Source of the DNA: Escherichia coli O157:H7
GTDB taxonomy: Bacteria; Pseudomonadota; Gammaproteobacteria; Enterobacterales; Enterobacteriaceae
Strand: one strand, 5' to 3'
Length of the DNA stretch: 64,000 nt
Assembly: GCF_013167455.1 (NCBI RefSeq)
Contig: NZ_CP038328.1
Each line of letters begins with the position of its first letter. Positions within the stretch are counted from its first letter, which is position 1. Positions 1 through 3,000 of this stretch are shown piece by piece. The position numbers were made by a program.

Positions 1-3000
1 AATGTTTCCAATCTATTTAATATAATTCAGAATTATGAATTCTAAATATAAATATTCATGAAAATTATAAATGTATATCAATATGTTATGAGTTGATCGG
101 AAAGATGGGGGGTATCAATGATTGTTGCGCTAAACGGCTGGTGTGATCACGCGCACATTAATGAAGGCATAAAAAAAAGCCGGCATCATGCCGGCCCAAA
201 AAATATAAACAAGACGATAAAAGGCTAATAACGGAAGCATCATGACACAGAATAATAAAAAGGTATAATTGTAATCAGTGCTAATATATTGATTGAATGA
301 ATTAATAAAGCCGATCTCAAAGATAAATAAAATCGCTCAAAACGATTTTTCCTGTATTCACTGCCGTTGCGCAAAAATTATCTATTTGTTCAAAAAATGA
401 GTGAGTCTTGACTGGCTCATCCAATGTGGAAAAATGTGACTTTTATCACGTAATAGTACTAAGTCTGAATTTTCCGGGTTATCTCAAAATGGAATACGGT
501 TCGACAAAGATGGAAGAGAGACTCTCTCGCAGCCCTGGCGGCAAACTGGCTTTGTGGGCTTTTTATACATGGTGTGGCTATTTCGTCTGGGCAATGGCGC
601 GTTACATCTGGGTGATGAGCCGGATCCCCGATGCCCCCGTGTCGGGATTTGAAAGCGATTTAGGCTCTACCGCGGGAAAGTGGTTAGGGCACTGGTCGGA
701 TTTTTATTTATGGCTCTGGTCGGGGCATTGTTAGGCAGCATTGCCTGGTACACACGACCTCGTCCCGCACGTAGCAGACGCTATGAATAAAAACTGCTAA
801 GGTGGCGACTCTTTGGCAACGGAGCGCGTATGGACTTACAACACTGGCAGGCACAGTTCGAAAACTGGTTGAAAAACCATCATCAGCACCAGGACGCGGC
901 CCATGACGTGTGTCATTTTCGCCGCGTCTGGGCTACGGCACAGAAGCTGGCGGCAGATGATGACGTCGATATGCTGGTGATTTTAACCGCCTGTTATTTC
1001 CACGATATTGTGAGCCTGGCGAAAAATCATCCGCAACGGCAGAGTTCTTCAATCCTGGCGGCAGAAGAGACGCGTCGCCTGCTCCGTGAAGAGTTCGTGC
1101 AATTTCCGGCGGAGAAAATCGAGGCCGTTTGTCATGCCATTGCCGCTCACAGTTTCAGCGCGCAAATCGCCCCCTTAACAACGGAAGCTAAAATCGTCCA
1201 GGATGCGGATCGGCTGGAAGCCCTGGGGGCGATTGGCCTGGCGCGCGTGTTTGCCGTTTCAGGGGCATTGGGCGTGGCGCTGTTTGATGCCGAAGATCCG
1301 CTCGCACAGCATCGCCCGCTTGATGATAAACGCTACGCGCTGGATCATTTCCAGACTAAGTTGTTGAAGCTACCGCAAATCATGCAAACCGTAAGAGGCA
1401 AGCAGCTGGCGCAGCACAACGCGCATTTTTTAGTCGAGTTTATGGCGAAGCTCAGTGCCGAACTGGCGGGGGAGAATGAAGGTGTCGATCACAAGGTGAT
1501 AGATGCGTTTTCACCCGCGGGCTGAGCGCGTGGCCCTAAATGGCTGTAATTATGTTAACCTGTCGACCATCTCAGATGGCCGGTTAAATCTATGCAGGAA
1601 AATATATCAGTAACCGATTCATACAGCACCGGGAATGCCGCACAGGCAATGCTGGAGAAACTGCTGCAAATTTATGATGTTAAAACGCTGGTGGCTCAGC
1701 TTAATGGTGTGGGTGAGAATCACTGGAGCGCGGCAATTTTAAAACGTGCGCTGGCGAATGACTCGGCATGGCACCGTTTAAGTGAGAAAGAGTTCGCCCA
1801 TCTGCAAACGTTGTTACCCAAACCACCGGCACATCATCCGCATTATGCGTTTCGCTTTATCGATCTATTTGCCGGAATTGGCGGCATCCGTCGCGGTTTT
1901 GAATCGATTGGCGGACAGTGCGTGTTTACCAGCGAATGGAACAAACATGCGGTACGCACTTATAAAGCCAATCATTATTGCGACCCGGCGACGCATCATT
2001 TTAATGAAGATATCCGCGACATCACCCTCAGCCATAAAGAAGGCGTGAGTGATGAGGCTGCGGCGGAACATATTCGTCAACACATTCCTGAACACGATGT
2101 TTTACTGGCCGGTTTCCCTTGTCAGCCATTTTCGCTGGCTGGCGTATCGAAAAAGAACTCGCTCGGGCGGGCGCACGGTTTTGCCTGCGATACTCAGGGC
2201 ACGCTGTTCTTTGATGTGGTGCGCATTATCGACGCGCGTCGTCCGGCGATGTTTGTGCTCGAAAACGTCAAAAACCTGAAAAGCCACGACCAGGGTAAAA
2301 CGTTCCGCATCATCATGCAGACGCTGGACGAACTGGGCTATGACGTGGCTGATGCAGAAGATAACGGGCCGGACGATCCGAAAATCATCGATGGCAAACA
2401 TTTTCTGCCGCAGCACCGTGAACGCATCGTGCTGGTGGGTTTTCGTCGCGATCTTAATCTGAAAGCCGATTTTACTCTGCGTGATATCAGCGAATGTTTC
2501 CCTGCACAGCGAGTGACGCTGGCGCAGCTGTTGGACCCGATGGTCGAGGCGAAATATATCCTGACGCCGGTGCTGTGGAAGTACCTCTATCGATATGCGA
2601 AAAAACATCAGGCGCGCGGAAACGGCTTCGGTTATGGAATGGTTTATCCGAACAATCCGCAAAGCGTCACCCGTACGCTGTCTGCGCGTTATTACAAAGA
2701 TGGCGCGGAAATTTTAATCGATCGCGGCTGGGATATGGCCACGGGTGAGAAAGACTTTGACGATCCGCTGAATCAGCAACATCGTCCACGTCGGTTAACG
2801 CCTCGGGAATGCGCGCGCTTAATGGGTTTTGAAGCGCCGGGAGAAGCGAAATTCCGCATTCCGGTTTCGGACACTCAGGCCTATCGCCAGTTCGGTAACT
2901 CGGTGGTCGTGCCGGTCTTTGCCGCGGTGGCAAAACTGCTTGAGCCAAAAATCAAACAGGCGGTGGCGTTGCGTCAGCAAGAGGCACAACATGGCCGACG

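Follow-up and report, generated by a model that had tools for sequence, protein, structure and literature searches.

The window analysed here, a stretch of 64,000 nucleotides of Escherichia coli O157:H7 DNA, begins within an intergenic region whose two flanking genes are both frameshifted in this serotype. To the right lies drpB (formerly yedR), disrupted by a 1-bp deletion and oriented divergently from the small RNA gene described below; downstream of that gene and on the same strand, 311 nt from it and just past the left edge of the window, lies a yedS/ompC-like porin gene. Because drpB and the porin gene are both disrupted in this way, the locus is not under uniformly strong selection. Many E. 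coli O157:H7 chromosomes, EDL933 among them, match bases 1-900 of the window with 100% identity, and the EDL933 record lists nothing between the porin pseudogene and drpB. The same holds more widely: RefSeq (PGAP) records of O157:H7 and of most other E. coli strains carry no feature at this position, and the curated K-12 record alone names a gene there, rseX. This explains why the initial annotation of this DNA described a strong minus-strand terminator without an annotated gene upstream. It also stated that the interval from the terminator to the yedR-like gene contains no minus-strand ORF of at least 60 aa, and the ORFs that we found there are indeed only 37, 44, and 35 aa long. The features that we assign to the region are listed below in window coordinates, with RseX nucleotide n at position 262 - n.

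171 to 261, minus strand: rseX gene, encoding the 91-nt RseX RNA from 261 (5') to 171 (3'), assigned by identity to b4603 and by the RF01401 match.
249 to 261, minus strand: U-rich 5' end of the RNA (RseX nt 1-13), variable between strains.
224 to 248, minus strand: weak 5' hairpin (RseX nt 14-38) as drawn in the Rfam consensus structure, overlapping the start of the pairing core.
212 to 232, minus strand: target-pairing core GUUAUUAGCCUUUUAUCGUCU (RseX nt 30-50), delimited by predicted duplexes and by invariance.
198 to 211, minus strand: U/A-rich single-stranded stretch UGUUUAUAUUUUUU (RseX nt 51-64), directly before the terminator.
177 to 197, minus strand: Rho-independent terminator hairpin (RseX nt 65-85; core 179-195), from the terminator scan and the centroid fold.
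171 to 178, minus strand: U8 3' tail (RseX nt 84-91), the termination signal, whose first two U make the outer G-U pairs of the hairpin.
268 to 273, minus strand: probable rseX -10 element TACAAT, at -12 to -7 from the 5' end at 261, matching 5 of 6 consensus bases at the canonical distance.
292 to 297, minus strand: weak candidate -35 element TTCAAT, matching 3 of 6 consensus bases with an 18-nt spacer and overlapping the mapped K-12 H-NS motif.
262 to 404, minus strand: AT-rich upstream regulatory region of rseX, common to the divergent drpB, within which the K-12 Fis motif maps.

The gene was identified by comparison with rseX of K-12 MG1655 (b4603, NC_000913.3 2033649-2033739, annotated as "ncRNA rseX, b4603, small regulatory RNA RseX"). 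All 91 of its 91 bases match the window exactly at 261..171 on the minus strand, and the 91-nt sequence occurs a single time within the 64 kb. A covariance-model scan of window positions 1-3000 gave Rfam family RF01401 (rseX) as the one strong match, with 97.7 bits against a gathering score of 50 (E = 1.5e-13), covering model positions 1-94 of 94 at window 261..172 on the minus strand; the match recurs at the gathering threshold when the whole 64-kb window is scanned against Rfam. The K-12 record places rseX between drpB and the yedS pseudogene, and this order, with drpB divergent from rseX and the yedS-like porin gene downstream, is common to EDL933, K-12, and seven other E. coli strains spread across the identity range. 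A second match in the scan of positions 1-3000, to RyhB (RF00057), scored 23.1 bits against a gathering score of 55 (E = 0.34), with a match confined to the terminator hairpin and the U tail; since this likeness is limited to a generic GC hairpin and U run, we rejected a relationship to RyhB. Score, identity, gene order, terminator, and target complementarity all place the RNA in the rseX family. The terminator flagged as an orphan is therefore the end of RseX, a regulatory RNA already known in E. coli, and window 261..171 on the minus strand is almost certainly rseX of E. coli O157:H7, with the origin, action, and silencing described for its K-12 counterpart.

Much of the initial annotation is borne out by these comparisons. 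Its proposal that a short non-coding RNA ends at the terminator is supported by the 91/91 identity to K-12 rseX and by the RF01401 score of 97.7 bits. It tentatively placed an sRNA, RseX, near yedR in K-12, and rseX is divergent from drpB here as it is there; the comparison with the K-12 sequence that it suggested as a check is the one that returned complete identity. The anticipated length of about 100-200 nt was too large, as the transcript spans 91 nt (261..171), and the interval originally outlined, 163-400, contains RseX but also extends over positions 262-400, which are promoter and regulatory DNA and not transcript.

The 3' end of RseX carries the hallmarks of intrinsic termination. On the minus strand the sequence reads GGGCCGGCA-UGA-UGCCGGCUU followed by UUUUUU. 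Its core stem, GCCGGCA/UGCCGGC, comprises 7 Watson-Crick pairs at window 195..179 on the minus strand, and two outer G-U pairs lengthen it to 9 pairs (197..177) around a 3-nt UGA loop. The 7-bp GC stem and the eight T noticed at the outset were thus both confirmed, at 195..179 and 178..171, respectively. When a stem of 7 or more perfect pairs, 5 or more of them G-C, and 7 or more T in 8 are required, a scan over both strands of the 64 kb finds three terminators: that of rseX, that of DsrA at 8656-8676, and one at 32224-32240. The chance expectation for such terminators, from 30 dinucleotide shuffles, is a mean of 0.03 per 64 kb. The initial annotation had also raised the idea that the terminator might serve a convergent gene beyond the window. 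We reject this, because the gene at the left edge, the yedS/ompC-like porin pseudogene, lies on the same minus strand and downstream of the hairpin, and because the hairpin read on the plus strand has no T run after it.

The remainder of the RNA was examined by folding and by comparison with the Rfam consensus. The centroid fold has a free energy of -14.6 kcal/mol and is dominated by the terminator hairpin; the stability of the whole RNA is not unusual (z = -1.5). The 5' hairpin of the Rfam model (nt 14-38) is absent from the centroid fold. In an alignment of 11 Escherichia sequences, 97.7% of cells at the Rfam pairs are paired overall and 12 of the 16 pairs never vary, the core stem of the terminator being invariant throughout; the pairs of the 5' hairpin are kept in 96-100% of cells, with a broken pair in two sequences and no compensatory change. 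A covariation test of the Rfam structure in the same 11 sequences likewise found no compensatory changes at any pair, and hence any support for the structure of RseX is limited to invariance, which neither establishes nor contradicts it. Two sequence hallmarks of the Hfq type are evident, namely the U8 tail after the terminator and the U/A-rich stretch before it. The latter (nt 51-64) is unpaired in both the minimum free energy and centroid folds and is nearly invariant across Escherichia; it is a putative site of Hfq contact. In Hfq-dependent sRNAs generally, a U tail of this kind is the expected site for the proximal face of Hfq.

To place the gene in a wider context, we searched for it across E. 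coli and beyond. Of 5426 complete E. coli genomes, 4879 carry the rseX region (query, window 140-300), in one or two copies each, and about 10% lack it. This distribution fits the description in PMC3318445, where rseX is a variable sRNA that some lineages have secondarily lost. Diverged E. coli variants carry substitutions at nt 6-9 and in the hairpin at nt 21-27, while nt 28-62 and the terminator core are invariant; the U tract ranges from 6 to 8 in length among other strains. When E. albertii, E. whittamii, sp. E1V33, and sp. MOD1-EC7003 are added to the E. coli variants, neither nt 29-51 nor the terminator core shows any change, and the variable parts across Escherichia are the 5' ten nucleotides and the hairpin loop. 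An 18-base pattern from the core, searched in one genome per species (GTDB), gave 37 matches, 6 of them in Escherichia (E. coli twice, E. albertii, E. whittamii, E1V33, and MOD1-EC7003); these six are rseX, with Rfam scores of 87-95 bits. The other 31, including one on a Pluralibacter contig, are identical at only 46-60 of 91 positions and look like chance matches. The exact 18-base pattern therefore found no rseX outside Escherichia in this one-genome-per-species set, a result to be read with the requirement for an exact match, by which diverged homologues such as those of Salmonella would escape the search. Salmonella rseX homologues are mentioned in PMC1804206.

The biology of RseX is known from K-12. 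The gene was predicted in 2002 and first characterised in 2006, with further work in 2021, according to the history given in PMC8313858. RseX came to light because, in multicopy, it suppresses the lethality of rseP deletion, as PMC8313858, PMC1851643, and PMC7648144 relate, and it is described as a 91-nt RNA in concordant accounts in PMC1851643 and PMC7648144. The portions of PMC8313858 that deal with its targets report that RseX represses ompA and ompC in a Hfq-dependent manner, place the ompA site in the middle of the RNA, and state that RseX also binds and represses fimB and ihfB; for all four mRNAs, repression works through pairing at the ribosome-binding site. Regarding expression, the same source describes no signal from chromosomal rseX in wild-type K-12. 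In a delta-hns strain it reports two bands, of ~91 nt and ~75 nt, and by RNA-seq the de-repression is stronger in a delta-hns delta-stpA double mutant.

We asked, by a windowed, accessibility-corrected duplex calculation, whether the sequence here fits that mechanism. The calculation predicts that RseX nt 37-50 pair with ompA -21..-7 (GAUGAUAACGAGGCG) at -12.0 kcal/mol and that nt 30-43 pair with ompC -14..-1 (AGAGGGUUAAUAAC) at -11.1 kcal/mol, with both predicted sites covering the Shine-Dalgarno sequence. Among 300 random 60-nt pieces of the window, 1 reaches the ompA value and 2 the ompC value, against a background with a mean of -4.8 and an sd of 2.4. Of 200 dinucleotide shuffles of RseX nt 1-64, 12 (ompA) and 20 (ompC) pair equally well and 3 reach both. 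A whole-length RNA duplex prediction was discarded in favour of the windowed calculation, as it returned unrealistically long duplexes that were no better than shuffles. The calculation thus lends genuine but moderate support to the pairing, and it is the published experiments that carry the weight.

The target sites themselves are highly conserved. In 5412 genomes for ompA and 5329 for ompC, the -60..+30 region has at least 99% identity to its K-12 counterpart. O157:H7 strain PV15-279 shows 100% identity to K-12 over both regions, and its rseX region (window 140-300) has the same sequence as the window. Since the RNA and its ompA and ompC sites are the same as in K-12, we infer, on well-founded sequence grounds, that the K-12 mechanism would hold in the O157:H7 strain.

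Upstream of the RNA, the DNA is AT-rich. G+C content falls to 28.5-37.5%, compared with about 53-59% in the adjoining genes, and a consensus promoter scan called no minus-strand promoter at the rseX start. PMC8313858 cites 5' RACE support for a sigma-70 promoter and a primary 5' end of K-12 rseX, and among its protein-occupancy data lists motifs for H-NS at -42..-32, Fis at -143..-118, and Rob at +1..+20; conversion of these coordinates places them at window 293-303, 379-404, and 242-261, respectively. The window differs from K-12 at four positions upstream of the RNA (295, 316, 377, and 401), so that the promoter region between 262 and 400 is the same but for 3 substitutions, and at two further positions downstream of the terminator. 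The substitution at 295 (C here, T in K-12) falls inside the candidate -35 element and H-NS motif.

A promoter-like sequence is also present on the opposite strand. At 242-269 the plus strand reads ATGACA-16 nt-TATAAT, an 11/12 match to the sigma-70 consensus, with its -35 hexamer inside rseX and its -10 hexamer overlapping the rseX -10 element by 2 bp. The -35 hexamer is invariant in all aligned Escherichia, and the -10 hexamer is invariant in all nine E. coli sequences of the alignment of diverged variants. The drpB promoter that has been published (PMC7648144) is a different one, located between window 426 and 489. Were the site at 242-269 active, it would start an undescribed rightward transcript near 276 and, by occupying the shared DNA, would compete with the weak rseX promoter; together with H-NS, this competition would explain the absence of RseX in the wild type. 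We regard this scenario as unlikely.

Taken together, these elements outline how rseX may operate in O157:H7. A weak sigma-70 promoter, with the -10 element TACAAT and a poor -35 element in AT-rich DNA, would direct a transcription start at 261, and the GC hairpin and U8 tail would end the transcript at about 171 to yield a 91-nt primary transcript. With the help of Hfq, the single-stranded core (nt 30-50) would pair with the Shine-Dalgarno regions of ompA and ompC, blocking translation and lowering the levels of both mRNAs, while other parts of RseX would act on fimB and ihfB. In ordinary growth H-NS, with StpA as a backup, would silence the gene, such that RseX would be seen only once silencing is lifted or when the gene is carried on a multicopy plasmid. 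Within this scheme, gene identity, terminator, gene order, conservation, and computed target complementarity come from the present analysis; Hfq dependence, target repression, H-NS silencing, and the 5' end come from the K-12 experiments.

An alternative reading is that rseX in O157:H7, although rseX by descent, is a permanently silent relic that is never natively transcribed and has no physiological role, the terminator and gene being no more than inherited DNA. The passages of PMC8313858 and PMC1851643 concerned with expression record no native transcript in wild-type E. coli, and probing of Salmonella samples did not detect RseX either. In O157:H7 the genes on either side are pseudogenes, the -35 element is weak, and the absence of rseX from about a tenth of complete E. 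coli genomes agrees with a variable sRNA subject to secondary losses (PMC3318445). However, several Escherichia species show no change in the pairing core or the terminator while adjoining positions vary, a pattern that fits purifying selection acting on the RNA. Furthermore, the RNA appears upon removal of H-NS, according to the account in PMC8313858, which points to a working promoter. On balance, we consider a permanently silent relic quite improbable.

The position of rseX upstream of a porin gene on the same strand, 311 nt apart and in an order kept in all nine strains checked, would also accommodate a role of the hairpin mainly as a leader or attenuator of the yedS-like gene, with conditional read-through and the short RNA as a by-product. 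Several observations argue against this arrangement. The terminator is very strong, with 7 G-C-rich pairs and a U8 tail, and the interval from there to the porin gene contains a promoter-like site of its own (46..19, minus strand). Plasmid-borne RseX acts in trans in the experiments related in PMC8313858 and PMC7648144. Moreover, pairing of RseX with the yedS ribosome-binding region, calculated at -5.3 kcal/mol, is at the background level of -4.8 +/- 2.4; this lack of excess pairing gives no sign that RseX regulates its neighbour. An attenuator is accordingly a very unlikely primary function for the hairpin. Finally, the 37-aa minus-strand ORF at 243..130, which does occur in the ORF list and starts inside RseX at nt 19, can be dismissed as a small protein with the terminator as an incidental feature, a reading that we rate as barely credible, because no Shine-Dalgarno sequence precedes its AUG, its frame runs through the terminator hairpin and U tract, the 6-8 length of that tract between strains would shift the frame, and the first AUG is AUC in one strain.

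As a regulator of porin mRNAs, RseX resembles several known Hfq-dependent sRNAs of E. coli. MicA, MicC, MicF, and RybB, which repress porin mRNAs, are likewise short primary transcripts with a Rho-independent terminator that pair with omp ribosome-binding sites, and their targets overlap with those of RseX in the case of MicA (ompA) and of MicC and RybB (ompC). The genomic setting is also reminiscent, in that K-12 micF adjoins the porin gene ompC and rseX likewise adjoins a porin gene. The sequence of RseX, however, is unrelated to these four RNAs, and it is regulated differently, lying outside the sigma-E and OmpR regulons and being silenced by H-NS. Its closest counterpart is K-12 RseX itself (b4603; RF01401, 'rseX Hfq binding RNA'), with which the 91-nt RNA, the terminator, the neighbouring genes, and the ompA and ompC sites agree; the differences are the O157:H7 host, the frameshifts in both drpB and the yedS-like porin gene, and the upstream substitutions, including that at 295.

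The finding offers little that is new, as it rediscovers rseX and the RNA itself is the same as in K-12. It does indicate that scans relying on RefSeq (PGAP) records will keep flagging the rseX terminator as an orphan. Because the RNA and its ompA and ompC sites are unchanged from K-12, the results obtained there, including porin repression, H-NS silencing, and control of fimB and ihfB, should by analogy carry over to E. coli O157:H7.

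The interval 171-261, which holds rseX, carries no listed feature in PGAP-annotated RefSeq E. coli genomes; the Rfam model matches the gene at 87-98 bits, and the name appears only in the curated K-12 record. The omission of rseX by PGAP is a systematic origin of "orphan terminator" findings. The other strong terminators of the window, and the small RNA matches at or near them, are as follows:

8594-8680, plus strand: gene for the small RNA DsrA (102.5 bits in Rfam)
32114-32155, minus strand: ES036/CssrF, a borderline Rfam match (38.0 bits; threshold 37.6)
32224-32240, plus strand: third strong terminator, CCCCGCC ACC GGCGGGG then T6

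The DsrA terminator (8656-8676) is among the window's three strongest, while the third lies in the fliC-fliD region, separated from the ES036/CssrF match by a gap of about 70 nt.

A plus-strand site also overlaps rseX:

242-269, plus strand: near-consensus sigma-70 promoter-like site, ATGACA-16 nt-TATAAT (11/12 consensus match)

Its -35 hexamer lies inside rseX, corresponding to RseX nt 15-20, and shows no variation in any Escherichia sequence aligned, while its -10 hexamer (264-269), unchanged in 9/9 E. coli sequences aligned, has 2 bp in common with the minus-strand rseX -10, TACAAT (268-273). Initiation at this putative site would be near 276, giving a rightward transcript. The published drpB promoter is a different one, located between 426 and 489.

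Downstream of rseX is a porin gene, located outside the window and given in L001 coordinates:

L001 2673-3859, minus strand: yedS/ompC-like porin gene, past the left window edge, 311 nt downstream of rseX

This gene is frameshifted in EDL933, yedS is a pseudogene in K-12, and an intact porin is annotated in 7 other E. coli strains. No pairing was predicted between RseX and the ribosome-binding site of the porin gene.

Additional RNA elements and insertions were observed elsewhere in the window:

58045-58242 (minus), 45217-45333 (minus), 52382-52498 (plus) and 51551-51749 (minus): Rfam matches to C4 antisense RNA, isrK, two ALIL pseudoknots (IS3 frameshift elements) and IS009
about 21600-24800: espR3 and espR4, a T3SS effector gene present twice in tandem (EDL933 annotation)

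All of these Rfam matches fall within a degraded P2-like prophage that carries IS3 and IS30 insertions and adjoins a tRNA Leu-Cys-Gly cluster (42041-42339). The espR3/espR4 tandem is inserted between yedL and fliE, with GNAT acetyltransferase fragments after each copy; per the EDL933 annotation, the pair is an O157-specific duplication inside the flagellar region.

Divergent from rseX is drpB, which encodes a cell-division and Rcs-activating protein:

489-790, plus strand: drpB (yedR), 1-bp deletion in a run of G at about 706-708

Compared with K-12, GGGG is reduced to GGG, shifting the frame past ...GKWLG, and RefSeq labels the EDL933 gene "frameshifted". The frameshift thus probably leaves this O157:H7 lineage without active DrpB.
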